Both the position numbers and the translations under genes were made by a program. The notes below the pieces were generated by a model. That model was given only the letters and a program-made list of their open reading frames with translations. It had not been told where the DNA came from and did not search any database. A stretch of DNA of 64,000 nt, taken from Candidatus Saccharimonadales bacterium (lineage in GTDB: Bacteria > Patescibacteriota > Saccharimonadia > Saccharimonadales > Saccharimonadaceae). Every line of letters starts with the position of its first letter. Position 1 is the stretch's first letter. The stretch lies in contig JBIISZ010000005.1 in NCBI GenBank assembly GCA_044340745.1, positions 795 through 64,794 of the forward strand, written 5' to 3'. Below, piece after piece: positions 16,050 through 63,861 of this stretch.

Positions 16050-16079
16050 GGTTATAAGCATTTGCGGTATGATAGAAGG

Positions 16080-18017
16080 GTGAAAGCTGATAGCTTCTTC
16101 AAAAAACATACAGTGTCATTCAAACAGCTTCCTAAGAAAAGGGTAGCCTATATTGCCGCTGGCCTCGTCGTGGGTGCCGGCCTTTTTTATAGCCTGGTGT
16201 TCTTTATCTCGAAGCCGATCCAGTTCTCGTACGCAGGCGATTCATGTGCCCGCCACTTGCTACTGTTCCCCAATATACAGCAACAGAGTGGCTCTGATGA
16301 TTTTACCGTTACCAAGGAGGGTGTCGTAAAAGTCGGGGGCTTATCCCTTGCGAGTACGCAGCTCTGCGTGGAACCGGCAACCAGCCCTTCCATAGGCGAG
16401 ACACGCCTGACTGTTTCGCCCTGGGGTGGGCCGCTGTTCGCTAAGCCGTTTGCTATCGAAGTATCAAAGGCACCGATAGTTGCCGTCAGCTCTATAAAAG
16501 GGGCGAAAATCCCCGCTAACCAGCCATTCAAGATTCCGCTGAATGAAGGTGACACTATACATACTTATACGGTCGCTGTCGGCGAGGCCACTGCACCGTG
16601 TAGTCCTGAAGCGGCTGCCGTCGTATGTGATATTCCGGCCTTGAAACTCGAGCACGGAACACCGTACTCACTGGTAATTAGCCGCACGTTCCCTGGTGAA
16701 ACGGAGCGGGATATAGTCGGTACGGTCGCTATCGCAACACTCGACCCGATGGTCATTACCCAGAGCAGCCTTACTGCTGATCAGGTCGTCTACGATACCC
16801 CGCAAAGTTTCACATTCGAGGCGGGCAGGAAAGTAAAGGCGGTTGAAGCAACTTTGGCCGTGAAGAAGGATGGTGTCGAACAGATGCCGGTCTCACTTAA
16901 GGCGGCCGTTACGGATACGAAGTTTTCGCTCAACCTTGCTAAGGCCCTTGAGCGTAAAACTACTTACGTTCTGACGCTCAAGCAAGTACAAGGAGATGAC
17001 GGGGGCACGCTACCGAGCCCTGTCGCCTATACATTCTCGACGTCAGGTGGCCCGAAAGTGAGTGGTGTATCTGTCGGCACGACAAAAGTGGGGCAGAACG
17101 AACGGATAGTACTGACCTTCGATCAGCCACTTCACACATCGGTAAATGTCGGTCAGTTCATCCGTACGACTGGGGTGAACACTGGCGTATCGAAGCTCTC
17201 TGATACGCAAGTGGCAGTGACGGTGCAGAACGCTCCGTTATGTGCGGCGTTTTCAATCGTCGTCGACAAGGGGATGCGAAGCGGAAGTAATGATGCTATC
17301 GCTGACGAGGCGTGGAAGTTTGATACGCGGACGATATGCGGCTACTCTTCGGTAATCGGCTCATCCGTCCGTGGGCGGCCTATTGTCGCACATTACTTTG
17401 GAAACGGTGCTACGACAATCTTGTTTACGGGGGGTATTCACGGCTCAGAGCCGAGTAGTACCACGACTATGCAGGCCTGGGTGGACTACCTCTATGCTAA
17501 CGGATATAAGATTCCCGCTGATAAGCGCGTCGTTGTCGTTCCTAACACTAACCCTGACGGTATCGCGAGCGGTTCGCGAAATAATGTGAACAATGTCAAT
17601 CTAGGGCGTAATTTCCCGACCTCTAACTGGAAAGCCGATATTGAAACCGCGAGCGGCCTCCTTGTGAACGGGGGTGGAAAGGGTGCCGGGTCGGAACCGG
17701 AAACAGCGGCGCTCATCAAGCTGACCCGCCAGCTTCGCCCGCGCCTCGAGGTGTCGTTCCACGCTCAAGGAAGCCTCGTGGGAGCGAACAAGTTTTCCGA
17801 CTCAGTCGCGATCGGGGATATATATGCCAAACTCGTAGGGTATAAAACGATGTTCTATAACGCCGAAGCGGTCATGGGGTATCCGATGACGGGTGAATAT
17901 GAGGATTGGATGGGTGAAGAAATGAACATCCCTGCGATATTGATCGAGCTCCCTCGTACGTCGGGTAATTATCTTACCTCGCAGCTGGACGCATTGGTAC
18001 GTATGCTATCGGTGTAA
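16080..18017 (+). CDS. Membrane-anchored M14 zinc carboxypeptidase (MpaA-like) on Ig-like stalk domains
   Basis: GGIHGSE (HxxE), NPDG, RNNVNNVNLGRNFP, SFH, ILIEL; N-terminal TM helix and beta-rich middle. GTG at 16080 follows -10 TATGAT by 6 nt. Confidence 0.82.
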   Translation: MKADSFFKKHTVSFKQLPKKRVAYIAAGLVVGAGLFYSLVFFISKPIQFSYAGDSCARHLLLFPNIQQQSGSDDFTVTKEGVVKVGGLSLASTQLCVEPATSPSIGETRLTVSPWGGPLFAKPFAIEVSKAPIVAVSSIKGAKIPANQPFKIPLNEGDTIHTYTVAVGEATAPCSPEAAAVVCDIPALKLEHGTPYSLVISRTFPGETERDIVGTVAIATLDPMVITQSSLTADQVVYDTPQSFTFEAGRKVKAVEATLAVKKDGVEQMPVSLKAAVTDTKFSLNLAKALERKTTYVLTLKQVQGDDGGTLPSPVAYTFSTSGGPKVSGVSVGTTKVGQNERIVLTFDQPLHTSVNVGQFIRTTGVNTGVSKLSDTQVAVTVQNAPLCAAFSIVVDKGMRSGSNDAIADEAWKFDTRTICGYSSVIGSSVRGRPIVAHYFGNGATTILFTGGIHGSEPSSTTTMQAWVDYLYANGYKIPADKRVVVVPNTNPDGIASGSRNNVNNVNLGRNFPTSNWKADIETASGLLVNGGGKGAGSEPETAALIKLTRQLRPRLEVSFHAQGSLVGANKFSDSVAIGDIYAKLVGYKTMFYNAEAVMGYPMTGEYEDWMGEEMNIPAILIELPRTSGNYLTSQLDALVRMLSV

Positions 18018-18065
18018 CGAGCGGGTAGTAGCTTCGTATAGCGAAGTGATGTATCGCTAAAATAA

Positions 18066-18360: not shown

Positions 18361-18403
18361 AATTTGTGGATATCACCGAACACGGTGAAGGAGGACACAC
18401 CAA

Positions 18404-19109: not shown

Positions 19110-19896
19110 AGTAGTAGCATCCATAAATAACGGCTTGTTCAGGGTGTTGTGCCTGAAGTAATTTCGGAAGGGGGATATGATCCGGGAGTTTCTCTTTCAA
19201 TATACCGGCAAGATCATGATGATACTTTTCAAAATACGTGCCGATACTTCCGCCGATGACGATTTGATCTGGTTGGATCGTCGGGATCAACGCGAGGAAG
19301 CCGCGGCTGATGCGGTCGGCGATGGCGTGCCAGGTGCGCTTGCTTTTGATGTCACGAGCGTATTTACCGTAGGTAGCGTAAATTGCTTTCCCTGAGGCGA
19401 AGCTTTCCCATTCCCGGACAAGCCCGTCAAACTCGACCAGCGAACGCCCGGCTTCGCTGTGGCGAAGCCCTGGGTCGATCTTTCCGTTGGTGATCACGCC
19501 GCTACCGATGCCAGTACTGATTGTCACGTACAAGCTAGATACAGGGACAGGGTCCTGCTGGCGGGCCTCGGCCAAGCCGGCGAGGTTAGCGTCGTTCTCG
19601 ACGTAAATCGGGGCACCGCCCAAGACGCCTTTGAGCTCTTCGGCGACATTGAAGTTCTTCCACTTCAAGTTATTGCACCAGACCGCGATGCCGTCCTTAA
19701 CGATGCCAGGAAGGGCGATGACGATCATATCGACGTCATCCGGTGAGAAGAGGGCGGTCAGGTGGGTCGTCAACGTTTCGACGTAGTCTTTAGTCTTCGG
19801 TGGTGTCGGAAACTTGAATTCAGTCGTAATCTGACCGGTCTCGGTGTACCCCGCTATCAGTGTTTTCGTTCCCCCAGTATCCACCGCGATAATCAT
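19075..19896 (-). CDS. ROK family sugar kinase
   Basis: DTGGTKT, ENDANLAGLAE, TISTGIGSG; ATG at 19896 follows -10 TACACT by 6 nt. Confidence 0.88.
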   Translation of the reverse strand: MIIAVDTGGTKTLIAGYTETGQITTEFKFPTPPKTKDYVETLTTHLTALFSPDDVDMIVIALPGIVKDGIAVWCNNLKWKNFNVAEELKGVLGGAPIYVENDANLAGLAEARQQDPVPVSSLYVTISTGIGSGVITNGKIDPGLRHSEAGRSLVEFDGLVREWESFASGKAIYATYGKYARDIKSKRTWHAIADRISRGFLALIPTIQPDQIVIGGSIGTYFEKYHHDLAGILKEKLPDHIPLPKLLQAQHPEQAVIYGCYYYAIDLVTDSQA

Positions 19897-19951
19897 AGTT
19901 CCAGTGTAGCACACGAAGCTACTCGTAGCAGGCTATGGTAAAATGAAACGT

Positions 19952-20488
19952 ATGCAAAAGTGGGCGCAAAAACAAACAGGCTTTACTATCGTTGAGCTGC
20001 TGATCGTTATCGTCGTCATCGCTATCCTAGCGGGTGTGACGATTGCTGCGTACAACGGCGTGCAAGAGCGCTCGCGCCAGACGAAAATTACCAACGACAT
20101 CCGTAACCTCGAGCAGGCAATTATCGCGGCACGAAACAACAATGGCGGAGTAGCACTTCGCTATATCACGCTGAGTACCGCGACAGGTTCTAACTGCTGG
20201 AGCAAACCGACGGATACCGACTTAGCTGCGCTTCCCTCTACTGATGGTTGCTGGACTGCCTATAATGCCGCACTTGCCAGAATCAGCGACGCCTCCGGTA
20301 TCAACGTCCGCGGTCTGATTGATCCATGGGGAAGGCCATATTATATGGATGAGAATGAAGGGGAAGGCGCCGACCCACCGATCGCCTGCAACCCGGATGC
20401 AATCGGATACTATGCGCAGCCCTTTACGACAGCTCAGACGATGATAAAGTCACGCTTTATACCAAAGATTCAGCCTCGCTGTCTATAG
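19952..20488 (+). CDS. Type IV pilin / pseudopilin-like protein
   Basis: Class III signal peptide G|FTIVELLIVIVVIAILA, DPWGRPYY motif, Cys pairs. The ORF-track ATG at 19943 overlaps the -10, so 19952 is preferred. Confidence 0.85.
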   Translation: MQKWAQKQTGFTIVELLIVIVVIAILAGVTIAAYNGVQERSRQTKITNDIRNLEQAIIAARNNNGGVALRYITLSTATGSNCWSKPTDTDLAALPSTDGCWTAYNAALARISDASGINVRGLIDPWGRPYYMDENEGEGADPPIACNPDAIGYYAQPFTTAQTMIKSRFIPKIQPRCL

Positions 20489-20953: not shown

Positions 20954-21060
20954 CTGGACTTATCCCTCCATCTGGGGTACAATAAGAGTAATCGATGAGG
21001 CAGACCCTTATTTAGGTGCGCCTCCGAAATACAATTAAGGAAGGAGTCTTAAAAAGACTT

Positions 21061-22152
21061 ATGGCAAAAGCCGCAAATATTACCATGGATGAGCTTCTCG
21101 CAGGCGAGGGTGCTCACCTTAAACACATCGCACAAGGCGAAGTAATCGAAGGAAAGGTGCTGACAATCCGCAAGCACGAAATCTTGATCGACCTCGGTCC
21201 TCAAGGTATTGGTCTCGTACCACGTCGCGAAGTAGGGTTCTCACGCGCTCTCAACGAGGGTGATGAAGTATCAGCCAGCATCGTTGATCCTGAACTTGAA
21301 AACGGTCAGGTACTGCTTTCACTTCGCAAGGCTGCGAAGGACAAGGGTTGGGACGAAGTCATCGCTAAGCTGGAAAGCGGCGAAATCATCGACGTCAGCC
21401 CATACGACGCGAACCGCGGTGGTCTCCTTGTTGAATACGAAGGTGTTCGCGGGTTCCTCCCAGTTTCACAGTTGTCAGCTGAACACTACCCACGGGTAGG
21501 TAGCAACGATAAGGATGAAATCCTTCAGCGCCTCAACGCGCTTATCAACCAGACCCTTAAGGTACGTATCCTTGATGCAGACCGCAAGGCAAACAAGTTG
21601 ATCTTCTCTGAGAAGGAAGCGGTCAAGGAAGGCCTCGCGGCCCGCTTTGAGAAGCTTAAGGTCGGTGACACCGTTAAGGGTGTAGCCACTGGTGTCGTTG
21701 ACTACGGTATTTTCGTGAACGTCGAAGGTATCGAAGGTCTCGTACACATCTCAGAAATCAGCTGGGAACGTGTTAACAATCCGTCTGATTACGTGAAGAC
21801 CGGCCAGACTATCGAGGCGAAGATCATCGCTATCGACAAGGACCGCCTCAGCCTCAGCATGAAGCAGCTTTCAGAAGACCCATGGCTCGGTGAAGTCGAC
21901 CAGTTTAACATTGGCGATGAAGTCGAAGGTACGGTTACCCGTATTACTCCATTCGGTGCTTTCGTGCAGATCAGCCCAGCTGTTGAAGCGCTTGTTCACG
22001 TCAGTGAGCTTGGCGACGGCGACAGCGCTGACCCTGAGAAGGTGTTCACGCTCAATGAACGCAAGTCATTCGTCGTTCTCGACATCGAAAAAGAGAACCG
22101 CAAGATCTCACTCGGTTTGCCCGGAAGCAAGCCAAAGAAAACAACTAAATAG
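21061..22152 (+). CDS. rpsA: 30S ribosomal protein S1 (four S1 domains)
   Basis: NRGGLLV...GFLPVSQL, EGLVHISEISW, FGAFV...EALVHVSEL; SD AAGGAAGGAG. Confidence 0.93.
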   Translation: MAKAANITMDELLAGEGAHLKHIAQGEVIEGKVLTIRKHEILIDLGPQGIGLVPRREVGFSRALNEGDEVSASIVDPELENGQVLLSLRKAAKDKGWDEVIAKLESGEIIDVSPYDANRGGLLVEYEGVRGFLPVSQLSAEHYPRVGSNDKDEILQRLNALINQTLKVRILDADRKANKLIFSEKEAVKEGLAARFEKLKVGDTVKGVATGVVDYGIFVNVEGIEGLVHISEISWERVNNPSDYVKTGQTIEAKIIAIDKDRLSLSMKQLSEDPWLGEVDQFNIGDEVEGTVTRITPFGAFVQISPAVEALVHVSELGDGDSADPEKVFTLNERKSFVVLDIEKENRKISLGLPGSKPKKTTK

Positions 22153-22228
22153 TTGGTAGTTAGTACACGGTAGGTAGTCGAGAGGCTACCTACCAGACAC
22201 TAGGTACCAACGTCACGACAAGGAGCAC

Positions 22229-24001
22229 ATGATGGCTGAGAAAGTGTTATCGATTGCCAATTCAATCACTGTCGGCGAACTTGCCGAAGTGCTCAACCTC
22301 CCCGTTACGACCCTTATCGGTGAGCTTTTTAAGAATGGTATCGCTGCGACGATCAATCAACGTATCGATTTCGAGACGGCGACAATTATCGTAGAAGAGC
22401 TCGGCCTTGATGTTGAGTTAGAGAAAAAAGAAAGTGCGAACGCCGGCACTGAACGCCGTGTCCGCGAGTTGTCTGATAACGCCGTCGGCCGGCCGCCGAT
22501 CGTAGCGGTCATGGGTCACGTCGACCACGGTAAGACAAGTCTGCTTGATTCTATCCTTGGCCAGAAGGTCGTTGAAGGGGAAGCTGGTGGTATCACCCAG
22601 CACATTAGCGCATACCAGACGGTCCGCAATAACCGCCCAATTACGCTGCTTGACACCCCTGGGCACGAAGCCTTCGCGGCACTCCGTCAGCATGGTGCGA
22701 CCCTTACGGATGTCGTTATCATCGTTGTTGCAGCCGATGACGGCGTGAAACCGCAGACTATCGAAGCGATCCGCTTCGCCCGTACGGCGAACGCCAAGAT
22801 CGTCGTCGCGATCAACAAGATCGACAAGGAAGCTGCCAACCCGCAGCTGGTAAAAACCCAGCTCGCAACCGAGCACAATCTTAACCCAGAAGAATGGGGT
22901 GGTGACACGGTGATGGTCGAAGTAAGCGCCAAGACCGGCCAGAACATCGACAAGCTCCTTGATATGGTGCTTCTTGTCGCTGATCTTGAAGAGCTAAAAG
23001 CGGAAGCCGATACGGCTGCCGAAGGGCTCGTCATTGAAGCGCACATGGAAACCGGCCGCGGTGCGGTCGTAGGGCTTCTTGTCGAACAAGGCGCGTTAAA
23101 GCCAGGCGCCTTCCTCGTGGCAGGAACCGCTTACGGTAAGGTGCGAACCCTTCAGGATTTCGCTGGTAAGGCAATCAAGGAAGCCGGGCCTTCGACACCG
23201 GTAACCATCTCTGGTTTTAAGGAATTGCCTCAGTTCGGTGATGTTTTTGAAGTCGTCAAGAATGAGAAGGAAGCTCGTGCCCGTGCGAACACCGTTCGTA
23301 TCGAGCGTGAACAAAACGCCGCAAGTGCGAACGTGACCGGTGCTGACCTCTTGAAGCTGATGACCCAGAAGCACGAAGCCGAAGACTTCAACGTTATCGT
23401 CAAGGCGGACGTCCAAGGTTCGCTGACCTCTGTGATTGATAGCCTCAAATTAATCGAGACTGGTGGGGAAGTGACATTACATATTGTCAGCAGCGGCGTC
23501 GGTAATATTACCGAGAACGATATTCGCCTCGCATCCGACGGCAAAACGGTCATCTACGGGTTCAATGTTGACCTTCCACCGGCGGTAAAGCAGCTTGCTA
23601 CCCGCGAGCGTGCCGAAGTTCGCCTTTACCGGGTGATTTATGAACTCCTCGATGATGCGAAGAACTCGATGGAAAAACTGCTTGCCCCAGAAGTGGTTGA
23701 GACGGAAATCGGTATCCTTGAAGTCAAGGGTGTCTTCCGTACGATGAAAGACCAGGTGATCACTGGTGGCCAGGTCGTTACTGGAAAGATCGCACCAGGG
23801 TTGCTCGTGCGCGCAAAGCGTAAGGATGAAGTACTTGGTGAGGCGGAAATCACCAATCTGCAACGTGAAAAGGTGGAAGTGAAGGAGGCCTTCGAGGGTG
23901 ACCTTTGCGGGCTCAGCCTTAAGACGAACAAGAAGCTGCTCCTCGAAATCGGTGATACGCTTGAATTCTTCACCCGCGAAGTCGTCGAACGACATCTATA
24001 G
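22229..24001 (+). CDS. infB: Translation initiation factor IF-2
   Basis: [36 protein letters not shown]. Confidence 0.97.
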
Positions 24002-30287: not shown

Positions 30288-30822
30288 AGTCGAGTGGCTC
30301 CAATTCACCCTTATCATTCAACCGGTAAAAGGCTTTTACGTCGTCTTTGATGTGATCGATGAATACGATGCCGTTGGTGTGGTCGATTTCGTGTTGGATG
30401 ACGCGCGCCAGGAAGCCCTCAGCTTTGAAGCGTACCTCTTGGCCTTCAAGATTAACAGCTTTGACGCGGATCTTGCTGTACCGAGGTACTTTTCCGTAAA
30501 CATCTTTCACGCTGAGGCAACCTTCGTAATCGGCAACTAATTTGCCTTCGTATTTGACAATCTCCGGGTTGATCAGCGCGGTGAAGTCGTTCGTTTCCTT
30601 GTCGTCAAAGTCGCTGCGGACGATGACAACCTTTTGCAGCGAATCAATCTGCACTGCCGCTAATGCAGCGCTGATTTCGTGGGGGCGGGATGCTTCCCAA
30701 TCAAGTGCTGCTTCCGTCATTTCATCGATCAGTTTCAGTGTCGCTTCATCAAGGTCGCGGACTTTGGCTGATTTTTCACGCAGGTGCGCGTTCGGCAGGG
30801 TGATGATATCGTCTTTGGTCAT
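30247..30822 (-). CDS. def: Peptide deformylase
   Basis: LAAVQI, EGCLS, QHEIDH; ATG at 30822 follows TGCTATACT by 8 nt. Confidence 0.95.
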   Translation of the reverse strand: MTKDDIITLPNAHLREKSAKVRDLDEATLKLIDEMTEAALDWEASRPHEISAALAAVQIDSLQKVVIVRSDFDDKETNDFTALINPEIVKYEGKLVADYEGCLSVKDVYGKVPRYSKIRVKAVNLEGQEVRFKAEGFLARVIQHEIDHTNGIVFIDHIKDDVKAFYRLNDKGELEPLDYDTHIKDNHILWD

Positions 30823-30869
30823 TAGGAAACAGTATAGCAGAGGTCGGAAGGCTGAAAAACCCCTTAGCG

Positions 30870-31421
30870 TCAACTCACGTCGTTTTGGGCTAGCGCATCC
30901 GTATATTCGGTGACGAGAAACTGTAAATGTTCGAAGTAGGCCGGATCGCCGTGGTATTCTACGCGGTCCTCCAGGTTCTTGTAAGCGACTGCCACGGGCG
31001 CTTGGTGTTTCCTGCGTTTCTCATCAAGCAGGCTGCCGGGTTCCGGCGTCTTGTCGGAGCCGTATTCCAATAGATCGTTGGCAGTGCTGACCGCGCCTGG
31101 TTTCACGCCGGTGGCGTCGATGACATACACGGCTTTGCCGTCGGTTTCATTCGTATAAACAGGCATAACCGCGATCCGCTCTTTATTACGGGCGTAGTTA
31201 GAGAGGCGTAGGTCGCTTTCTTCTATCTTACCCGCTACATTAAGCCAGATCTGTTCAGTCTTCCTGTCGTAAGTAAGGCGGTTGGCGTAAAGGTAGGCGA
31301 TCGTACCGGGAAGCAAGCTTTCGATTGTCTCTTCACGAAGGTATTCAGGTAAGCCTATCTTCGGGGTAGGGATTTCGATGCTCGGTGGGAGATGTTCTTG
31401 ATGGGGTTTCGGAGCGTCCAT
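30870..31421 (-). CDS. Hypothetical protein
   Basis: 183-aa ORF filling the gap between priA and def, with its own -10 TATTAT 6 nt upstream. Confidence 0.65.
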   Translation of the reverse strand: MDAPKPHQEHLPPSIEIPTPKIGLPEYLREETIESLLPGTIAYLYANRLTYDRKTEQIWLNVAGKIEESDLRLSNYARNKERIAVMPVYTNETDGKAVYVIDATGVKPGAVSTANDLLEYGSDKTPEPGSLLDEKRRKHQAPVAVAYKNLEDRVEYHGDPAYFEHLQFLVTEYTDALAQNDVS

Positions 31422-31425
31422 ACTT

Positions 31426-33369: not shown

Positions 33370-33390
33370 CTTCTCAGTATAGCGCTTCGG

Positions 33391-33517: not shown

Positions 33518-33540
33518 TGCAGTAATGCTAGAATAAGCAT

Positions 33541-36262: not shown

Positions 36263-36294
36263 AGTTCCTAAGCGCTTATGCTTAAATGGGGGCA

Positions 36295-37288: not shown

Positions 37289-37317
37289 TTGCAACCCTTG
37301 ACCGTATCTGTTACAAT
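37289..37317 (+). promoter_or_regulatory. sigma70 promoter of rpsU
   Basis: TTGCAA, 17 nt, TACAAT with TG extension. Confidence 0.65.
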
Positions 37318-37328
37318 ACATCACTGAT

Positions 37329-38009: not shown

Positions 38010-38010
38010 A

Positions 38011-38037: not shown

Positions 38038-38053
38038 GGTATACTAAGTACCA

Positions 38054-38848: not shown

Positions 38849-38880
38849 CCTAAACCCTTCTGAACCCGTATCATAAAGGT

Positions 38881-40181: not shown

Positions 40182-40234
40182 GTTTCATCGCATAACGCTT
40201 GTGAAAACATGAGCGTTAGCGGTATACTAACCCT

Positions 40235-44170: not shown

Positions 44171-44208
44171 TTTGAACCACTCAAGGTGCTTATGGTAAAA
44201 TAGCCCCA

Positions 44209-45410: not shown

Positions 45411-45430
45411 ATTTTCATAAGGAGTGAGCA

Positions 45431-48310: not shown

Positions 48311-48372
48311 TCAGCCGTAAGGGTGGGGCAGGTATTGCAATTTCATACCGTTTATGGTATTATGTAATAACA

Positions 48373-49263
48373 ATGCTCCACCACGAAGCTGACCACCACG
48401 CAGTTACCCCCGATACCGACGCCGACAAAGAGCCGGTAGGGTTCGCTGCGTTCGCGGCGCGTCTCAAAGAACGTGCCCGCGAGGAAGGCAAAGTGACGGC
48501 TCTCGACCATCTTCACGAACTTTACCGAGCGAATGACCAAGAGGCGCTCGATACGTACATCGACGACCTCGTGTATGAAGCACTGCAGAATGACGAAGAA
48601 TTCCTCGATAACATACAGACGCTTCGTGAAGCCCGCAAAGCAAACGGCACAGGTGCTGAAAATGAAGACCTCCGCCGTAGGCAGAACGAGATCTTTAACG
48701 AATACAAGCGGAACCTTATTAGTATTTCTGGCCTTCCTGAAGCCGTAGGGCAGGATGAGTACGAAGAAGCCAAAAAGCGTATCCAAGGCATTATTGCCGA
48801 ACATGTTACGACGCACGATGGGACGGACGGTGTTCTCGGTGCGTTAGGTATTCTTACCCTTGATGATGAAGGCAGGGAAATCTTTACCTACCCACGCGGT
48901 CTTTTCCCGGCGCAGACTGACCAGAAATGGGATCTTTATTTGGAACGGGTACAGAACCACCTTCGAAAAGAACGTGGTGTTGTCGTCGGTACGCTTGATA
49001 AAGACGAACTAGAAGATGCTGATAAAATGCGCCGTACCGCTCACGACTCGGCGACGCGTGACGTCCATAGCCTTCTTGGTTTAGATACGATTACCGATGG
49101 CCAATGGGATTTCAAGAAAACTCGTGCCATGCTTGGGAAGATGCGTGACAGCAAGTTTCCGACGGTAGAGACGGCCGAAAAAGGCCGCACCACCGAGCAG
49201 GTCCTTCGAGCTGCTAACGCCTTAGGTGTGCTGAGTACGAAGATCTCTGACCTTCGCCGATAG
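48373..49263 (+). CDS. Hypothetical acidic helical protein
   Basis: 296-aa ORF with its own promoter TTGCAA-17-TATTAT, 9 nt before ATG. Confidence 0.7.
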   Translation: MLHHEADHHAVTPDTDADKEPVGFAAFAARLKERAREEGKVTALDHLHELYRANDQEALDTYIDDLVYEALQNDEEFLDNIQTLREARKANGTGAENEDLRRRQNEIFNEYKRNLISISGLPEAVGQDEYEEAKKRIQGIIAEHVTTHDGTDGVLGALGILTLDDEGREIFTYPRGLFPAQTDQKWDLYLERVQNHLRKERGVVVGTLDKDELEDADKMRRTAHDSATRDVHSLLGLDTITDGQWDFKKTRAMLGKMRDSKFPTVETAEKGRTTEQVLRAANALGVLSTKISDLRR

Positions 49264-49264: not shown

Positions 49265-49936
49265 CTACGTTTTGATTTCAACACCGCCAAGAATGGCGCT
49301 CCCGGTCAATATGAGCACCGGACCTTTGTGGCTGTCATCACCTTGTGATTTATTCTCTACACCACCGGCGATAGGGGCGACTTTCGAGACGACTTTCCAG
49401 TCACGAGGGACACGGATTTCAATACCACCGAACAGGGCGAATACGTCAAGGGTGGCTTCTTTTTTAATTTTAGCGTCCCGTAGGTCAAGCATGGCACCGC
49501 CGAAGATGGCAGTCACTTTACCACCTTGGTAGTCATCGGATTTGTTCACTGTTTCTGAGCCACTGAATAATACGGAGATATCATCGGCATGGTGGGTGGT
49601 AGTTGGAACCTTGCTGCGGTTCTTGTGCCCGATGAGTACGGAAAGCCCGACGGCTACCAATACGACCGGAACGATCAGCTCGAATACGCTGAATTCAACC
49701 AACGAGTGGTTTTTGAGCAGGAGTAATCCACCGACGATAACCAACGCCAAGGCCCAGATGTAGTTGCGCCGTGCATCGTTTGCGAAAGTAATAACCCCAC
49801 CGATAATAATGAGGGCTGGCCACCAAGTACTGAAGTAGCCCCAGAACGAAATGACGTTCAGGGTGTCCAGTAGGGCGCCGAGCCCGATGATGATAATGAG
49901 TATTCCGGTGACGTAGCGTGAGAGAGTCTGTTTCAT
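49265..49936 (-). CDS. LiaF/DUF2154-like membrane protein (cell-envelope stress family)
   Basis: Four N-terminal TM helices; FGGAMLDLRDA...ALFGGIEIRVP...GGVE...LGGVEIK beta-repeat C-terminus. Confidence 0.8.
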   Translation of the reverse strand: MKQTLSRYVTGILIIIIGLGALLDTLNVISFWGYFSTWWPALIIIGGVITFANDARRNYIWALALVIVGGLLLLKNHSLVEFSVFELIVPVVLVAVGLSVLIGHKNRSKVPTTTHHADDISVLFSGSETVNKSDDYQGGKVTAIFGGAMLDLRDAKIKKEATLDVFALFGGIEIRVPRDWKVVSKVAPIAGGVENKSQGDDSHKGPVLILTGSAILGGVEIKT

Positions 49937-50014
49937 GAGCCAAGTATAGCATATTGACATTTTATTAAGTTTATGCTTAAATAGAAATATAACTAATTAA
50001 AACAAAAAGTGTAT

Positions 50015-50212: not shown

Positions 50213-50247
50213 CAGTGTTTCACGGAATACGCTATACTAAGTAAAGT

Positions 50248-50637
50248 ATGAATATCTCTAATGAAGCGTTTGATGCCCTCGTGACGAAGGCGATGGACGA
50301 CTTGCCGCAAGAATATATAACCGGCCTAGAAAACGTGGCTATTTTGTATGCCGATGCCCCTGATGGGTACCAGGTTGAAAAGTCTGAACTCCATGAAGGC
50401 GGGCTATTGTTAGGGTTGTACGAAGGGATCCCGTTAACGAGCAGGGGAGCGGGGTATACGTTCGTGCTGCCTGATAAGATCACCTTATTTAAAGATGCCC
50501 TCCTTACTATATCGCGTACGCCGGAAGAATTATTTGAGAATGTAAAGCGCACTCTATGGCATGAGATCGCTCATTATTACGGGCTCGACCATGATCGGAT
50601 CGACTTCCTGGAGCAACGTGGGCCACTTCCATCATAA
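50248..50637 (+). CDS. Zincin-like metallopeptidase (DUF1025 type)
   Basis: LLGLYEGIPLT...LPDKITLF...TLWHEIAHYYG. Confidence 0.85.
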   Translation: MNISNEAFDALVTKAMDDLPQEYITGLENVAILYADAPDGYQVEKSELHEGGLLLGLYEGIPLTSRGAGYTFVLPDKITLFKDALLTISRTPEELFENVKRTLWHEIAHYYGLDHDRIDFLEQRGPLPS

Positions 50638-54308: not shown

Positions 54309-54326
54309 CGCGACGATGCTCATACT

Positions 54327-54356: not shown

Positions 54357-54372
54357 ATATACTTTAGGCACT

Positions 54373-55323
54373 GTGAAAACAAAACAAACAACAGGAAAAA
54401 AACGAGTGACCGCGGCAGCGAAGCGTCCGACGACGCTTTCGCGCAAGGTGGCGCATCACACGAAGAAACTTCTTGTGCCCCATAAGGCGAACGACTATCG
54501 GCCGCACTTGGTGCGCTTGCATGGGATTATCGCGGTACTCGGTATCGCATTGGTGGCGCAGGTTGCGTATACTTTGGCGGCTACGGGCACGTTCGGGGTC
54601 ATGGGGCGGGCGGCGGATATCTCTACCGTCGAACTGTTGACTGACACGAATGCGGAACGTGAGGCGCAGGGGCTACGTGCCCTTACATTGAACGACCAAC
54701 TAAGCCAAGCTGCCTACCTCAAGGGCCAGGATATGCTGGCGAATGACTATTGGGCGCACGTATCGCCTAGCGGTGTCGAGCCATGGAAGTGGTTTAGTGA
54801 TGCAGGATATAACTACAGTACGGCAGGTGAGAACTTAGCGAAGAACTACCCAGATGCCGAGGCGACGGTCGCCGCATGGATGAATTCCGAGACCCACCGG
54901 GCGAATATTCTCAACGATACGTATCAGGATGTTGGGTTCGCGGTCGTTGAGGGCGAGCTACAGGGCAAAGAGGCGACAGTGGTCGTTGCCTTGTACGGTG
55001 CACCGGTAACGGTCGCCGCGGTTGCCGAACAAGCGGTAAACCGGGTCCAACCGGCATTTTCCGCTTCGGCAGTATCTCAGAATTCGGATGGACCGCTGGA
55101 GTATTTCGGATCGGCAGTAGGGTCATTGAGCCCAGTGACGGTCATGACCCTTGGGCTGCTTGGGCTGGTGGCGATCGTGGGTGTATCTGCGCACCATTAC
55201 CGCGCGAAGTTACCGAAGGCGTGGAAGAAAAGTTGGCGTTTGCATCACGGGTTGTATACATTCCTCGGCATGATTAGCTTGGGCGTACTGGTGATTTTGG
55301 CTTCGGGAACCGGCCAACTCTAA
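54373..55323 (+). CDS. CAP/SCP domain membrane protein
   Basis: TNAERE...LSQAAYLKGQDM...YWAH...AGENLA...WMNSETHRANIL...VGFA. Confidence 0.9.
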   Translation: MKTKQTTGKKRVTAAAKRPTTLSRKVAHHTKKLLVPHKANDYRPHLVRLHGIIAVLGIALVAQVAYTLAATGTFGVMGRAADISTVELLTDTNAEREAQGLRALTLNDQLSQAAYLKGQDMLANDYWAHVSPSGVEPWKWFSDAGYNYSTAGENLAKNYPDAEATVAAWMNSETHRANILNDTYQDVGFAVVEGELQGKEATVVVALYGAPVTVAAVAEQAVNRVQPAFSASAVSQNSDGPLEYFGSAVGSLSPVTVMTLGLLGLVAIVGVSAHHYRAKLPKAWKKSWRLHHGLYTFLGMISLGVLVILASGTGQL

Positions 55324-55368
55324 ATATACGCATCCCGTAACCTTGAGCAGTATGCTATATTCATATAT

Positions 55369-57885
55369 ATGAATCGCGCGTATCGTGGGTTTACGCTAGT
55401 TGAGGTGCTCGTTGTCATAGTCGTCGTGGCTATACTTGCAACAATTGTTTCACTTGGATTGAACGGGTATTTGGCTCAAGGTCGTGACGCGCAGCGATCT
55501 TCTAGTATGGTATCGGTCAGTGAGGCATTGGAAAAATATTATGATGCCAACGGTGAGTACCCGGGATGTACGGCGATGTCGGCGTCGCCTTCGAACGTTG
55601 TTAAAAACACTTTGACCGGTGTAACTGAGGATCTGTTCGTCGACCCTCGCGATTCGGGGACCACAACTTCGATTACTTGTGACGACATCGAATCAGTATC
55701 GGGAAATAAATATCAGTACCGCGGTGATGGAAGCGAGACTTGTGCGACAGGCCAGGCGTGTCTTGCGTATACATTGCGTTATCGTGAAGAGCAAAGCGGC
55801 ACAATCAAAGAAATTGACAGCCGTCGGAAAGTATCTATTTCTACCTCTGGTATTCCTGACCTTGCGGCAAGCGGTACCGGCATTACCCGCATCACCACCA
55901 ACTGGAATATGGTGCCTAACTCTACAGGCTACCACCTGCAGGTGTCTTCAAATGCGAGCTTCAGTAGCCTTGTTGTAGACGAAACATATGAAGCATATTC
56001 TGAGGTGCTAACGGGCCTTGGGTACAATACGACATACTATCTTCGTATCCGTGCGGTGAGTTCAACCGGAAGTGGTAACTGGTCGCCGACGGTTACTGCG
56101 ACGACCCAGGCGTTGTCTGCTCCGACTGTCAGTGCATCAACGACTGGTATGACCTCATTGCGTGCGACGTGGGGATCGGTGAGTAGCGCGACCGGATATA
56201 CGGTTCAAATTGCGAGGAACACCGCATTTACGACTGAGTTACAGACGTTCACGGCAAGCGGCACGTCCCAGAACTTTAGCGGCCTCGATTACAACACAGC
56301 GTACTATATCCGTGTCCGGGCGGTTGCGAACAGCAATAACGGGCCATGGTCGGCAACGGTCACCAGAACGACGGACGACTTGGATCGTCCAACACTGAGC
56401 GCCAGCACCTCAAGCCTTACTTCTTTGAGTGCAAGCTGGACGGCGGTGCCAACTGCGACAAGTTATACCCTCGAACTATCGACAGTTAGTTCATTCAGTA
56501 CGATTACCCGTACAATCACCGCTACGACAACCTCAACCTCTATTACTGGCCTTAGCTACAATACGACATACTACCTTCGCGTGAAGGGCGTTTGGAGCGG
56601 CAACCAAGGGCCATGGTCGAACGTTGTAACCCGCTCAACGGATAGCCTTGATGCACCGACGGGCTTGTCGGCAACTGCGCTCTCGACCTCTTCTATCAGC
56701 GCGGACTGGGACGCTTCAGTAGGGGCCTCATCCTATCGCCTTGAGTGGTCCACTTCGAGTAGCTTCTCTTCTTTGACCGGCTCGGCGGAAGGTATCACTT
56801 CGACCGCACGCTCAGCGACCGGGTTAAGCTCTAATACGCTGTATTACTTCCGTGTGCGGGCTGTTTGGTCGGGAAATAGTGGTCCTTGGTCATCGGTCGC
56901 AAGCGCGCGGACCGACATGGCGAACCCGACAGGCACGACAATCACTGCGGCCATGAGCGGATCGAACGCGGTCGGCACCGCATCGGCATCGTGTGCGAAC
57001 GGGTCTCCACAGTACCAGATCCGTTATCGAAGCACGAACACCTCTACGATGGGCACATGGTCTTCATGGAGTTCTTGGACGGCGACGACGACAAGGAGTG
57101 TCGCGACTGCACAAGGCTACCAGTACGGCTTCCAGGTCCAGTCTCGTTGTATCTCAGGCTCTTACATAAGTGACACCGTGTCACCGACTACTGTAGCAAC
57201 GACGGTGCGCGCCTTTGCGGCACCTGGTGCACCGAGTGTTTCGGCAAGTACCTCAGGCGGTACGACAACCTTCACCCGAGGTGGCGTCACCTGTTCTGGA
57301 AATGGCACGGCCGAATATCGCTACCGACGCTCACGAGAGGGTGACTATTACAGCTATAGTGGTGCGACGACAGGGAATAGCGCCACGACCGACACAACGA
57401 GCCAAGGCTGGAATTATGGTATGAACTGGCAGGGGCGCTGTAAGAATATTTACAACACTGGTCCGTTTGGCAGTGAGGGGCGTGCGACGTATCTTCGACC
57501 TGTCGGTAGGCCGAATGGCTACAGTTTCAATATGTGGCGTGAATCATCAAGTGTAATTAAGGGTACTGTCTCAAACTCATGCGACACCGGCGCGACATTG
57601 TATGGATACTTCGACGTCTGGGCACCATCGAACTGGCCATGGGTTAACCCAAGTACTGGTACAAATGAGGGACGCTATGGTTGGCGTCGCGATAGCTACG
57701 GTTGGGTCGGAGGGCTTAACTACTGGGCGAATACCATAACGACCGGTGCTACGACGAGCAGGTCAGGGGGTATCCCTAGCGGCACCACATGGCGCGTCGC
57801 TGGGCATTACAAGTGTCAGAATATGACAACAGGTCGTAATAGCGGTGACTTTGTTTACGGGGAAAGTGGAGCCTACGGGTTCTAG
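55369..57885 (+). CDS. Prepilin-type protein with tandem fibronectin type III domains and a Cys/Trp-rich tip
   Basis: G|FTLVEVLVVIV; four clear FN3 repeats (W...Y...YYxRVRAV...GPWS) and two degenerate ones. Confidence 0.87.
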   Translation: MNRAYRGFTLVEVLVVIVVVAILATIVSLGLNGYLAQGRDAQRSSSMVSVSEALEKYYDANGEYPGCTAMSASPSNVVKNTLTGVTEDLFVDPRDSGTTTSITCDDIESVSGNKYQYRGDGSETCATGQACLAYTLRYREEQSGTIKEIDSRRKVSISTSGIPDLAASGTGITRITTNWNMVPNSTGYHLQVSSNASFSSLVVDETYEAYSEVLTGLGYNTTYYLRIRAVSSTGSGNWSPTVTATTQALSAPTVSASTTGMTSLRATWGSVSSATGYTVQIARNTAFTTELQTFTASGTSQNFSGLDYNTAYYIRVRAVANSNNGPWSATVTRTTDDLDRPTLSASTSSLTSLSASWTAVPTATSYTLELSTVSSFSTITRTITATTTSTSITGLSYNTTYYLRVKGVWSGNQGPWSNVVTRSTDSLDAPTGLSATALSTSSISADWDASVGASSYRLEWSTSSSFSSLTGSAEGITSTARSATGLSSNTLYYFRVRAVWSGNSGPWSSVASARTDMANPTGTTITAAMSGSNAVGTASASCANGSPQYQIRYRSTNTSTMGTWSSWSSWTATTTRSVATAQGYQYGFQVQSRCISGSYISDTVSPTTVATTVRAFAAPGAPSVSASTSGGTTTFTRGGVTCSGNGTAEYRYRRSREGDYYSYSGATTGNSATTDTTSQGWNYGMNWQGRCKNIYNTGPFGSEGRATYLRPVGRPNGYSFNMWRESSSVIKGTVSNSCDTGATLYGYFDVWAPSNWPWVNPSTGTNEGRYGWRRDSYGWVGGLNYWANTITTGATTSRSGGIPSGTTWRVAGHYKCQNMTTGRNSGDFVYGESGAYGF

Positions 57886-60608: not shown

Positions 60609-61208
60609 TTAAAACGTTCGAATCTTATTGAACGGGAAGATACGGACGCCGACCGGACCGACGACGTCGTAGAGTGGGACGGTTCCGAGGCCGTTTCGTG
60701 AGTCATACGAATAGCTGCCGGTACGGTGATCACCGGTGACGAACAAGTTACCTTCGGGGACGATAGTGTCGATTTGGCCGGTCGTCGGTGAGCCAGGTTC
60801 GCCGTTATTTTCATCATCCGGGTTGAACCCTTGGGGATTTTGTTCGTTATACACAGTAAATGTGCCGTTTTGCAGTACGACACGTTCGCCTGGAAGGCCA
60901 ATGACCCGTTTTACGATGTATTCATCTTCGATGCCCCTGCTGTAGTGAGGGTTTTTGAAAACGATGACTTGCCCGCGTTCTGGAATGTACGGGGTGTTAC
61001 GCAGGTTCGCCCAGGTGACCGGAAGCCGATTCACGATAAGTCGATCGCCAGTGTAGAGGGTCGTTTCCATGCTCGGGCCGACGACATTATAGCTGCGAAA
61101 TACGAAGGTATTGATTAGTACGGTACCAATGACCACACAGATAATGAAAATCGATAGCTGTAAAATATCTTTGACGAAGGGGTGTCGGGTAAAAAAAGAG
61201 GCTTCCAT
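60609..61208 (-). CDS. lepB: Signal peptidase I
   Basis: VVGPSMETTL (Ser), YIVKRVIGLPG (Lys), GDHRTGSYSYDSR; ATG at 61208 preferred because 61220 overlaps the -10. Confidence 0.93.
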   Translation of the reverse strand: MEASFFTRHPFVKDILQLSIFIICVVIGTVLINTFVFRSYNVVGPSMETTLYTGDRLIVNRLPVTWANLRNTPYIPERGQVIVFKNPHYSRGIEDEYIVKRVIGLPGERVVLQNGTFTVYNEQNPQGFNPDDENNGEPGSPTTGQIDTIVPEGNLFVTGDHRTGSYSYDSRNGLGTVPLYDVVGPVGVRIFPFNKIRTF

Positions 61209-61330
61209 AAACCATTCCATTATACGTGAGCGCTATCGGAAACACCACCTGGAAGCAGTTTTTAGCATAAGCTTTTTGGAAGCTGAATATGCTTGCAAGC
61301 GAGGGGATAGTGTATAATGGTATAAGTTTT

Positions 61331-62980
61331 ATGATTAAAAACACCTCTTCAGTTGACGGGTTTATCCCACGACGACCCGGCACGCAGCTGGGGTCTTTGC
61401 ATGACGAAAAGCCTACTCGAAAGCGTACCCAAACCTCGGCTAACCGAAGCCTTCAGACGAGTGGTTCTACCGTAGTTTCTGCTGATACAGTCGGCCAGCC
61501 GCGCCGGGGGCGTGTCATCGGTCGTGACGATATCGATGAGTCACTGCGTGAAATCGACAATTTAGAGCCTGAAAACGGGAAAAAACCGAAAAAGGGTCGT
61601 CGTAAAGATCGAAAAGCGAACAAACCTAAAAGCAAAGCGCGACGAATTGTTTTTTGGGTGTCGATGGCGCTACTCGCAATTCTTGTAGGGGTTGGTGGGT
61701 TCTTGGCATTCAAGGCCATCACCGCGACGCAGACGGTATTCCAGGGAAGTGTCCTTGACCTTATTCAGAACGAACCGCTGAAAGAAGACGCGAATGGTCG
61801 GAGTAACTTCCTCGTATTCGGTACTGCTGAAGACGATGAAGGCGGTGAGCACGGCGGGGCGAACCTGACCGACTCGATCATGGTGATCAGCGTCGACCAA
61901 GATAAGAAGAACGCATACATGCTCAGCCTTCCTCGTGACTTATGGGTGCAGTACCAAGAAACCTGTACGGTAGGGAACCAAGGAAAACTGAACGCAGCGT
62001 ATTTCTGTGCTTCTAACGATGGCGAAGACGAGCAAGCCGGAGCCGAAGCCTTAATGGCAAAAGTCGGGGAAATTACCGGCCTTGAAATGCAGTACTATGT
62101 ACACCTTAACTTCACCGCTGTCGTCCAGGCAGTCGATGCGGTCGGTGGTGTCGACGTGACGATTCAGAGTGAAGATCCACGCGGTATCTTGGACCGTAAC
62201 TTCGACTGGAAGTGTAACTACACGTGTTACTACGTCAATTACAAGAATGGCCAGCAGGCGCATCTTGACGGCGAGCGAGCTCTTGCCCTTGCCCGAGCCC
62301 GTAATGCCGCAGGCGGGTACGGACTCCCAAACGGGAACTTTGACCGCGAGAAAAATCAGCAGATGATCATTAAGGCGCTTCGCGACAAGGCGCTCAGCGT
62401 GGGTACCCTGACGAACGTCGGTGCGGTCACTGGATTGATCGACGCTTTGGGGAATAACCTTCGTACGAACATTCAAACCAAAGAAATCCGAACGCTTATG
62501 GATGTCGCATCAAAGACGACCGATGAAAACATCATCTCCCTGAGCTTGAACGAAGAGGGAAACATGCTTGTGACAACGGGAAGCTACAACGGCCAGAGCA
62601 TTGTTCGACCGGTCGCTGGCCTCCTCGACTACAGTCAGATCCATGCCTATGTACAAAAGAGTACCTCGAGCGATCCGTTCGTAAAGGAAGAGCCGCATGT
62701 TACGGTCTTGAATGGAAGCGGTGAAGCGGGGGTCGCGCAGCGGCTCGCGGATCAGCTTGAAGATCGTGGCTTCGTCATCGATGCCGTCGATAACGCTCCT
62801 GATGGTACCTACCAGGCAATTGAAATTTATCAGATCAACAAAGAAAAGACCGCCACCGCGGCTAAGCTAAAAGAGCTCTATAAGGTGACTTTAAAAACGA
62901 CGACGCCTCCGGTGAGTGTAGTAGGTGAGACTGATTTCGTGATCATCATCGGTAGTGCCAGCGCCGTTCCTGCCGAATAA
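61331..62980 (+). CDS. LCP (LytR-CpsA-Psr) family glycopolymer transferase with a C-terminal LytR_C domain
   Basis: LTDSIMVIS, SLPRDLWV, KLNAAY, ALARAR, DFDRxxxQQ-like NFDREKNQQ; C-terminal VTVLNGSG...A. Confidence 0.9.
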   Translation: MIKNTSSVDGFIPRRPGTQLGSLHDEKPTRKRTQTSANRSLQTSGSTVVSADTVGQPRRGRVIGRDDIDESLREIDNLEPENGKKPKKGRRKDRKANKPKSKARRIVFWVSMALLAILVGVGGFLAFKAITATQTVFQGSVLDLIQNEPLKEDANGRSNFLVFGTAEDDEGGEHGGANLTDSIMVISVDQDKKNAYMLSLPRDLWVQYQETCTVGNQGKLNAAYFCASNDGEDEQAGAEALMAKVGEITGLEMQYYVHLNFTAVVQAVDAVGGVDVTIQSEDPRGILDRNFDWKCNYTCYYVNYKNGQQAHLDGERALALARARNAAGGYGLPNGNFDREKNQQMIIKALRDKALSVGTLTNVGAVTGLIDALGNNLRTNIQTKEIRTLMDVASKTTDENIISLSLNEEGNMLVTTGSYNGQSIVRPVAGLLDYSQIHAYVQKSTSSDPFVKEEPHVTVLNGSGEAGVAQRLADQLEDRGFVIDAVDNAPDGTYQAIEIYQINKEKTATAAKLKELYKVTLKTTTPPVSVVGETDFVIIIGSASAVPAE

Positions 62981-63060
62981 CACTTCGAGGTATAACACTG
63001 CCATTTAAAATGGCTATCTGTCGCAATTTGCCTACCCGCGCGTGCTATAATAGTAATGAT

Positions 63061-63861
63061 ATGGAGTTTCTTAAATTAGTTCGGAAACGCTCCTTCCTTA
63101 GCGAGCTCATCTATGCTGTTCTTAACGTAGGGTTAGCGGTCGGTGTGCTGCTCAGTGTCTGGTACACCAGCTCTGTCTCGTTAGCACTCGTGCTGGTGCT
63201 TATTAGTAAGTGGCGTATCTTTGCGGTACGCCCTCGATACTGGTGGGCGAACCTCCGTTCTAATATGGTCGACATTATCGTCAGTGTGAGTATCGTCTTC
63301 CATCTGTATACGATCGCAACGGCCGATATTGCATCATCGACACAGATTATTCTGATGGCCGCTCTGACACTGCTCTACATTGGGTGGCTTTTGTTCATCA
63401 AGCCTCGTTCAAAGCGGAAGTTTATCGTCGCACAAGCGGGTGCAGCGCTTTTCTTCGGAACGTCGGCACTGTTCATTTTCAGCTACAACTGGCCAGTGTC
63501 GATCGTGGTGCTATTGATGTGGTTGATCGGGTATTCCGTCGCACGGCACATCCTCAGCGCATACGACGAAGAAACTCATGCACTTTTCTTAGGACTCGTA
63601 TGGGGTCTCGTGCTCGCAGAAATCGCCTGGGTATCCTACCACTGGGCTATCGCATACCCGCTCCCGATCGTTCCAAGCCTGATGGTGCCGCAGGTCGCAA
63701 TCACTGCTACGCTTGTCAGCTTCCTTGCATTCAAGGCGTATGATTCCTTTTACAAGCACGCTAAGATCCGTATGAACGACGTATTACTTCCGCTTCTCTT
63801 CACTATCAGTGTTTTGATCGTACTATTAGTGCTGTTTAATCGCGTCGGTACGGCTATTTAA
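63061..63861 (+). CDS. Polytopic membrane hypothetical protein
   Basis: About 8 hydrophobic segments; ATG at 63061 follows TGCTATAAT by 9 nt. Confidence 0.75.
   Translation: MEFLKLVRKRSFLSELIYAVLNVGLAVGVLLSVWYTSSVSLALVLVLISKWRIFAVRPRYWWANLRSNMVDIIVSVSIVFHLYTIATADIASSTQIILMAALTLLYIGWLLFIKPRSKRKFIVAQAGAALFFGTSALFIFSYNWPVSIVVLLMWLIGYSVARHILSAYDEETHALFLGLVWGLVLAEIAWVSYHWAIAYPLPIVPSLMVPQVAITATLVSFLAFKAYDSFYKHAKIRMNDVLLPLLFTISVLIVLLVLFNRVGTAI

Follow-up and report, generated by a model that had tools for sequence, protein, structure and literature searches.

Many genes of a saccharibacterial genome are very probably expressed from leaderless or near-leaderless mRNAs, the predicted transcription start lying at, or a few nucleotides (nt) ahead of, the start codon. 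The arrangement was studied in a stretch of 64,000 nt (the window; positions 795-64794 of contig JBIISZ010000005.1) and throughout the metagenome-assembled genome to which it belongs (916,851 bp in 25 contigs, 96.5% complete, guanine-plus-cytosine [GC] content ~51%). The host is assigned to the Saccharibacteria (TM7), within the Patescibacteria or candidate phyla radiation (CPR), near Candidatus Microsaccharimonas; its FtsA (40235-41476 in the window) shares 87% identity with the protein of Candidatus Saccharibacteria bacterium 49-20 and 82-86% with those of Ca. Microsaccharimonas metagenome-assembled genomes. The promoter motif that precedes these genes, its spacing, the restriction to AUG, the absence of a Shine-Dalgarno (SD) sequence and the conservation between species can be read directly from the genomes. 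A sequence-only reading of the window had proposed leaderless translation from -10 hexamers too close to the start codon to leave room for an SD, a proposal that is now supported by the sharp onset of the spacing distribution, the lack of SD sites, the AUG restriction, a pyrimidine at -1 followed by A at +1, weak predicted 5' structure and conservation among orthologs.

The position of the transcription start and the mode of ribosome binding that we infer are as follows. Two modes of gene start, leaderless-type and SD-led, would coexist in one genome. Leaderless-type genes sit right behind a sigma-70-type extended -10 promoter whose hexamer ends 6-11 nt before the AUG. RNA polymerase starting about 7 bp past the hexamer would generate an mRNA that begins at the A of the AUG where the spacer (the number of nt between hexamer end and start codon) is 6 nt, perhaps also 7 nt, and 1-6 nt upstream of the AUG where it is 8-12 nt. 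Such a leader would be too short for an SD site, and a ribosome carrying initiator tRNA would bind the 5'-terminal AUG directly, as in Actinobacteria and Deinococcus. The SD-led genes are operon-internal or carry leaders of 20-120 nt, and their GGAG-type SD pairs with the intact CCUCC tail of the 16S rRNA.

The spacing signal is visible independently of any gene call. When TATA[AC]T followed by ATG was counted on both strands of the genome, 8-15 occurrences were found at each of the spacers 0-5 (10 at spacer 5), 67 at spacer 6, and 43, 35, 26, 26 and 23 at spacers 7 to 11, after which the counts settle at a baseline of about 13 per spacer; GTG and TTG gave no peak at these spacers in the same test. 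The relaxed pattern TA[TC]A[AC]T preceded ATG 80, 63, 56, 37, 38 and 30 times at spacers 6 to 11, compared with some 13-36 times at the other spacers between 0 and 44, and 218 of the 304 ATGs found at spacers 6-11 with this pattern open a reading frame (ORF) of at least 90 codons, versus about 6 of about 22 per control spacer. The spacing expected from the window is thus recovered genome-wide, with a sharp onset at 6 nt and a trough at 12-20 nt: strong promoter matches number 188 at 6-11 nt from the next start, 15 at 12-20 nt and 78 at 21-60 nt, from which it follows that about two thirds of the recognizable near-gene promoters are of the leaderless type, the rest serving short leaders.

A gene-based analysis led to the same picture. 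The gene set consisted of 815 ORFs of at least 90 codons selected by codon-usage score, in 808 of which the upstream motif was scorable; a match was defined as a hit of a 12-nt position weight matrix (PWM), trained on the upstream motif, 5-12 nt before an in-frame 5' ATG. At a threshold of 5 bits or more, 256 of the 808 genes (32%) carry the motif, whereas decoy ATGs (out of frame or interior) predict 9-21 false matches. Raising the threshold to 6 bits leaves 241 matches at in-frame 5' ATGs, compared with 19.0 ± 4.0 after shuffling of the 30 nt upstream; windows of equal width farther upstream gave 35-55 matches, and the same decoys forecast 6-12 false ones in this set. Among divergently oriented genes, 45% have the motif; where the upstream same-strand gene lies 26-60 nt away the share is 54%, and at distances of 25 nt or less it is 15%. 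Motif genes are equally common among genes with and without an ortholog in a relative of the same genus (32% vs 31%). The claim that much of the genome is leaderless therefore stands in part: the class accounts for about one third of the genes and roughly 43% of the transcription units (a rough figure, based on our own gene calls, that treats genes lacking the motif and lying within 25 nt of the gene upstream as operon-internal), which is no majority. Within the reported span of the window, about half of the genes are leaderless-type.

Composition might be suspected of producing such a pattern, given that AT-rich upstream DNA contains TAnnnT often (24,684 copies in this genome, by themselves without spacing signal). 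The local shuffles, set up as the control that could have overturned the proposal, gave instead the clear enrichment reported above, and the survey pattern TATAMT-N6-7-ATG occurs 110 times in this genome versus 29 times when reversed. Escherichia coli K-12 shows no enrichment of this pattern (55 vs 91 in the reversed control), and the motif is retained in 79% of orthologs whose flanking upstream positions are only ~33% identical. Chance is refuted by these controls, and its probability is negligible.

Start codon usage sets the leaderless-type genes apart. The motif was found before 241 ATGs, 18 GTGs (5.7 expected) and 7 TTGs (7.7 expected), which corresponds to an excess of about 12 GTG cases and none for TTG, leaderless-type starts being ~95% AUG; GTG and TTG were thus rejected as general leaderless starts, the former for its weak enrichment and the latter for its lack of any. 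Genes with an SD of at least 5 nt use ATG in 80%, GTG in 14% and TTG in 6% of cases. The near-exclusive use of ATG fits the known need for a 5'-terminal AUG. No GGAG, GAGG or AGGA peak is found in front of the motif genes; one is clear at -16 to -8 in the remaining genes. The 3' end of the 16S rRNA (...GGATTACCTCCTTTCT) was checked for an anti-SD and retains CCUCC, so that the genome must be regarded as mixed leaderless/SD; the AGGAG-type SDs ascribed to the contrast genes rpsA, infB, ileS and a KGG-repeat gene are indeed present. Both the 16S rRNA and RpoD of the host are of bacterial type, and the primary sigma factor is complete (RpoD C-terminal model matched over positions 1-237, 371 bits).

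The same data bear on whether the promoter-proximal ATGs are used at all, for real promoters could in principle serve ordinary short leaders ending at start codons farther downstream. The starts lack experimental proof, a GTG with a weak AGGA lies downstream of the proposed start at 54373, and the promoter-proximal ATG of a parA-like gene opens a 6-codon mini-ORF before an SD-led start, all of which would suit such a reading. It is nonetheless very unlikely. In-frame ATGs alone are enriched over the decoys, most of the ATGs behind the relaxed pattern open long ORFs, as reported above, and there is no SD peak within or ahead of the proposed starts. Homology agrees with these starts for adk, ftsA, def, priA, the ROK kinase and the pilins: in profile searches residues 1-3 of adenylate kinase, FtsA, peptide deformylase, PriA and the ROK kinase fall at the proposed ATGs (residue 2 of the kinase aligning to profile position 2-3), and the pilins need their N-termini, a prepilin cleavage motif being found at residues 6-10 from the proposed starts in five pilin genes. 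The proposed ATGs also align exactly in 93 of 123 ortholog pairs (see below).

The motif itself has the anatomy of a promoter. Its consensus, T(-5)-A-T(-3)G(-2)S(-1)-TATAMT, is that of an extended -10 element, the G of the TG at -3/-2 being present in 66-83% of cases, and is accompanied by a weak -35 region in which the first T alone is enriched, at 17-bp spacing. A generic -35/-10 consensus scan was discarded: it barely exceeded shuffled sequences (23 vs 15.1 ± 4.4), because these promoters depend on the TG extension and not on the -35 region, and it still caught five of the listed sites of the window. Across 49 bacteria the transcription start site (TSS) centers 7 bp downstream of the -10 element (PMC12641261), a position that, for a 6-nt spacer, coincides with the A of the ATG. 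In the spacer-6 class (67 genes), T or C precedes the ATG in 89% of cases, a pyrimidine(-1)/A(+1) pattern that fits what is expected of transcription starting at this A. The nucleotide before the ATG is an A in 49% of the spacer-7 class, suggesting a 1-nt leader for many of these genes, and the enrichment of purines at +7/+8 after the hexamer at spacers of at least 9 nt suggests leaders of 2-6 nt. Predicted folding of the first 40 nt is weaker in leaderless-type genes (-3.6 kcal/mol) than in SD-led genes (-4.9 kcal/mol; p = 5e-5) and gene interiors (-7.0 kcal/mol). We note that T stands just before the ATG in 50-57% of the genes with spacers of 9-12 nt, versus 34% of SD-led genes; the TSS rule leaves this unexplained, since transcription should start 2-6 nt upstream, and it may reflect a context preference of near-leaderless initiation.

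A motif situated 6-12 nt before the start is also at the distance of a ribosome-binding site, and AT-rich enhancers bound by ribosomal protein S1, which is encoded here, are known; TAnnnT might then be a non-SD ribosome-binding or translation-enhancer element in leadered mRNA, of the kind seen in GeneMarkS-2 group B (Bacteroidota type). We hold this to be highly improbable, as the motif reproduces the complete extended -10 consensus of sigma-70, including TG at -3/-2 and, at 17-bp spacing, a weak -35, and is rare before operon-internal genes (15% of those with gaps of 25 nt or less), which use SD. In group B, one non-promoter motif precedes all genes, operon-internal ones included, a distribution different from that found here. 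The same motif further occurs 21-60 nt upstream of SD-led genes, the anti-SD is intact, and the onset at exactly 6 nt together with the pyrimidine/purine signature suits transcription initiation.

Comparison with a relative from the same genus (G131; complete genome, 795 kb, GC 45.7%) indicates that the arrangement is under selection and conserved between species. Reciprocal best hits yielded 483 pairs with a median protein identity of 69%. The leaderless type was kept in 123 of 155 cases (79%), versus 27 of 328 other genes (8%; odds ratio 43, Fisher p = 1e-56), with the spacer within 1 nt in 100 of the 123 pairs, and upstream positions outside the motif are only ~33% identical between orthologs. 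The onset of the spacing distribution likewise falls at 6 nt in the relative.

Several points weigh against leaderless initiation or restrict its reach. Start choices and gene calls come from a simple in-house pipeline, not from a validated gene finder, and the identity of hexamer positions between orthologs is partly circular, because one PWM selected both members of each pair, although the retention of 79% vs 8% is not. With spacers of 8-12 nt, about half of the sites are strictly near-leaderless, the leader probably measuring 1-6 nt. Two public RNA runs with this organism (X25 and X26) contain isolated contigs of 150-240 nt only, from which no TSS is readable, and nothing was recovered from two urban metatranscriptome runs (X28 and X29) examined for transcript 5' ends. 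In X26, whose library is filed as metagenomic RNA-Seq, one 151-nt record, which may represent RNA or DNA, has its first base 19 nt ahead of the adk ATG. An intrinsic terminator lies just upstream of 11 of the 82 leaderless-type genes with same-strand gaps of 26-120 nt (13%), a share no higher than in other genes; 36 leaderless-type genes lie at 25 nt or less from the upstream same-strand gene, and read-through transcripts on which the same AUG is internal probably also exist. The scarcity of terminators, the short gaps and the adk record would all suit a situation in which the promoters, while real, are mostly secondary and the SD-less AUGs are internal on read-through transcripts, where they would be reached by coupling, re-initiation or 70S scanning. 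Such an explanation is unlikely, and it is compatible with leaderless initiation rather than exclusive of it. Ninety-nine of the 256 leaderless-type genes are divergently oriented, so that no upstream gene can read in, and same-strand neighbors in the class lie far apart for coupling (median gap 51 nt). Restriction to ATG is what 5'-terminal starts typically show, and both the pyrimidine(-1)/A(+1) pattern and the abrupt onset at 6 nt characterize start sites, not coupling.

The further suggestion that each leaderless gene forms a compact self-contained unit holds for some loci, with clear examples at 38054 and 54373, and fails as a rule, the combination of terminator, promoter and ATG fitting the 13% of cases given above. 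In the two examples (38000-38056 and 54325-54375), the T-run of a terminator hairpin leads straight into the TGn-TATACT of the next gene, so that terminator, promoter and start codon are contained within ~45-65 nt.

Beyond the genus, the phylogenetic spread of the arrangement was examined at individual loci and by surveys based on TATAMT-N6-7-ATG and its reversed control. Each of the 80 ftsA loci retrieved from Saccharibacteria, with protein identities as low as 50%, has a TATAAT/TATACT-like box at a distance of 6-7 nt from the ATG, mostly with TG and often with a TTGACA-like -35. The adk gene, considered as a second class-wide example, was rejected: it has a leaderless promoter in the window's family and a few others and elsewhere lies close behind the preceding gene, indicating that the arrangement turns over in evolution. 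Even sampling of the class (81 genomes) gave a median ratio to the control of 2.6; 55 (68%) showed at least 2-fold enrichment with p<1e-3, and 4 fell below 1.2. A sample of the phylum taken in the same way (151 genomes) gave a median of 1.67; 40 (26%) showed at least 2-fold enrichment and 29 had none. As gauged by this pattern, Saccharimonadia have the trait class-wide and other Patescibacteria have it patchily. It seems to have been gained or lost at about the family level: the 29 genomes without enrichment include every sampled member of families f10, f19 and f22 (17 genomes, ratios 0.74-1.05). Families f38, f76, f43 and f65 display 4- to 10-fold enrichment.

In the window, 45 nt upstream of each of 20 starts listed in the sequence-only reading were extracted and the coordinates of the hexamers computed (Table 1). 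A hexamer of TAnnnT type is present at the spacer claimed for it at all 20 sites, if one variant (TTAAAT) is counted, and the TG said to stand usually in front was found as TGn before 13 of the hexamers, G occupying -2 in 18. TATACT occurs seven times and TATAAT, TAAAAT and TATTAT twice each; TATGAT, TAGAAT, TACAAT, TACACT, TATCAT, TATATT and the variant are seen once. The observation that several starts in the ORF track are too far upstream proved right for 8 of the 20 sites, and for an additional site at 61331. Genome-wide, 84 of the 256 leaderless-type genes have a longest-ORF start that falls on the -10 box or ahead of it, the open frame reaching a median of 9.5 codons beyond the promoter-proximal ATG. 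The two GTG sites (16080 and 54373) are singly plausible, though GTG is weakly enriched genome-wide.

Table 1. Leaderless-type starts of the window and SD-led genes given for contrast (positions are those of the window; for SD-led genes the motif is the SD).
Coordinates	Strand	Motif	Spacer (nt)	Start codon	Gene or product	PWM (bits)	Ortholog in G131	Remarks
16068..16082	+	TATGAT	6	GTG 16080	645-aa membrane-anchored MpaA-like amidase		not found	no ATG ahead of the transmembrane helix
18387..18406	+	GAAGGAGGA (18387-18395)			KGG-repeat stress-protein gene			contrast; SD-led, leader ~120 nt
19894..19908	-	TGc-TACACT	6	ATG 19896	ROK-family sugar kinase	13.0
19939..19954	+	TGg-TAAAAT	7	ATG 19952	type IV pilin	11.2		longest-ORF ATG at 19943 overlaps the hexamer
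21037..21063	+	AAGGAAGGAG (21037-21046)		ATG 21061	rpsA (S1 domains)			contrast; SD-led
22220..22234	+	AAGGAG (22220-22225)			infB (IF-2)			contrast; SD-led
30820..30836	-	TGc-TATACT	8	ATG 30822	peptide deformylase (def)	14.0
31419..31433	-	TATTAT	6	ATG 31421	183-aa orphan gene	weak	not found	no TG; promoter within the end of priA
33367..33381	-	TATACT	6	ATG 33369	priA	11.4
33529..33543	+	TGc-TAGAAT	6	ATG 33541	218-aa protein	9.4	TGc-TAAAAT, 6 nt, ATG
36282..36297	+	TGc-TTAAAT (variant)	7	ATG 36295	pilin (MKQW...)	missed		start backed by paralog 38054 with identical N-terminus
37312..37331	+	TGt-TACAAT	11	ATG 37329	71-aa protein (putative rpsU)		TGt-TACAAT, 9 nt, ATG	near-leaderless
38040..38056	+	TGg-TATACT	8	ATG 38054	pilin	15.2
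38869..38883	+	TATCAT	6	ATG 38881	adenylate kinase (adk)
40223..40237	+	TATACT	6	ATG 40235	ftsA
44196..44211	+	TGg-TAAAAT	7	ATG 44209	pilin	12.1
45419..45433	+	AAGGAG (45419-45424)		GTG	ileS			contrast; SD-led
48358..48375	+	TGg-TATTAT	9	ATG 48373	296-aa orphan protein	11.8
49934..49948	-	TGc-TATACT	6	ATG 49936	223-aa protein	16.6	TGc-TATACT, 7 nt, ATG
50233..50250	+	TATACT	9	ATG 50248	129-aa protein	13.8	TATACT, 10 nt, ATG
54358..54375	+	TGa-TATACT	9	GTG 54373	YkwD/CAP-domain protein			ambiguous; alternative leadered start GTG 54406 with weak AGGA
55356..55371	+	TGc-TATATT	7	ATG 55369	838-aa pilin-headed protein	10.4
61206..61224	-	TATAAT	10	ATG 61208	signal peptidase I	7.4
61313..61333	+	TATAAT	12	ATG 61331	LCP-family transferase	10.0	TATACT, 13 nt, ATG	near-leaderless; absent from the first list
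63046..63063	+	TGc-TATAAT	9	ATG 63061	266-aa protein	13.3	TGg-TATAAT, 10 nt, ATG

Other features of the window deserve mention. The ROK kinase and pilin genes at 19894-19954 are served by a minimal divergent promoter pair with an intergenic distance of 55 nt; only 30 nt separate the two hexamers, so that each -35 region overlaps the other promoter. The five type IV pilin-like genes (19952, 36295, 38054, 44209 and 55369) share a prepilin leader (MKQW.../MQKW...) and differ in their C-terminal parts, each standing behind its own leaderless-type promoter, and the product of one of them is 838 aa long. The 71-aa protein encoded at 37329-37544 is read from its sequence as ribosomal protein bS21 (rpsU), with no NCBIfam match, and its gene stands alone behind its own promoter; adk, likewise, has its own promoter, whereas in many relatives it follows secY. 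Translation genes that are usually joined in operons appear split into single units. Ahead of the parA-like gene (58776-58817; ATG 58815), TGCTATAAT is followed after 7 nt by the ATG of the 6-codon ORF already mentioned (MNEGQK*, 58792-58812), which holds a GAGGG SD-like site and stops 2 nt before the real start, and the relative has a similar layout (TATAAT, 8 nt, ATG, a 4-codon ORF encoding MSKG*, and a GTG start). The mini-ORF could provide a 5'-terminal upstream AUG that aids ribosome loading, or be incidental; genome-wide, short ORFs behind the motif are no commoner than background. The window also contains two giant ORFs (6097-15384, 3095 aa; 24422-28558, 1378 aa), the larger of which comes after an SD-led gene run starting at the window's left end.

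In the genomes designated group C by GeneMarkS-2, genes whose leader does not exceed about 5 nt are counted as leaderless too. Operon-first genes of this group have a Pribnow box ~6-10 nt ahead of their start, SD sites being used elsewhere; the layout is reported mainly for Actinobacteria (90%) and Deinococcus-Thermus (97%), in which 25-50% of transcripts are leaderless (PMC6028130), and is exemplified by Mycobacterium tuberculosis, Streptomyces and Deinococcus-Thermus (PMC6028130, PMC3898074, PMC4633059). The present genome matches the defining sequence features of the group, with a -10 box at about the same distance before operon-first starts and no SD there, the SD/anti-SD system being kept for other genes, and its figure of roughly 43% of transcription units falls inside the reported range. 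It differs in lineage (Patescibacteria/Saccharimonadia) and size (0.9 Mb), in the strongly extended -10 (TGn) type of its promoters and in a spacing tail that reaches 11-12 nt. A 5'-terminal GUG is also said to be common in mycobacteria, following work by Shell and colleagues in 2015, unlike the almost exclusive use of AUG in this genome. In E. coli and its phages, leaderless mRNAs such as lambda cI from pRM and Tn1721 tetR are bound at their 5'-terminal AUG by 70S ribosomes (PMC9031893, PMC8459731). The 5'-terminal AUG that those mRNAs require and their unstructured 5' end have their counterpart here as statistical properties, although leaderless mRNAs are rare exceptions in E. coli and would concern about one third of the genes here. 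Archaea (GeneMarkS-2 group D; Haloferax, Sulfolobus) similarly combine many transcripts without a 5' untranslated region with SD-led internal genes, but their TATA box lies ~26 nt upstream, whereas here a TG-extended bacterial -10 box stands ~10 nt upstream, its signal falling between -12 and -17 relative to the start, in an organism with a bacterial RpoD.

A full-text literature search found no paper on leaderless genes in Saccharibacteria or CPR, and the main text of a 2025 promoter survey that includes 188 RNA-seq-inferred TSSs of Nanosynbacter lyticus is silent on leaderless transcripts in that organism. The mechanism is well known in other bacteria; what is new is the lineage, for which no report was found. 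It is conceivable, though we would not yet call it probable, that leaderless initiation is ancient and under selection in the class Saccharimonadia as a whole and in many, not all, other Patescibacteria. If so, the CPR would be the third large leaderless-rich bacterial clade after Actinobacteria and Deinococcus-Thermus, with extended -10 promoters and near-exclusive AUG as its hallmarks. All three lineages are placed in Terrabacteria, and the trait could therefore date to a common ancestor rather than to three origins; a mode of initiation that is class-wide, and patchily phylum-wide, would add a third large lineage to the debate on ancestral leaderless initiation. The mechanism is not new, but it offers a testable link among small genome size, intergenic regions that are short (median 51 nt) and a reduced translation machinery.

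In practical terms, gene finders that expect an SD or choose the longest ORF will misplace starts in metagenome assemblies of Saccharibacteria and other CPR bacteria, distorting N-termini and the prediction of signal peptides and pilin leaders. Saccharibacteria have recently become genetically tractable; expression cassettes could shrink to TGnTATAAT followed by six bases and ATG, and designs based on SD sites may differ from native genes. The finding should thus be of use mainly for annotation and genetic tools in Saccharibacteria, its evolutionary interest being moderate.

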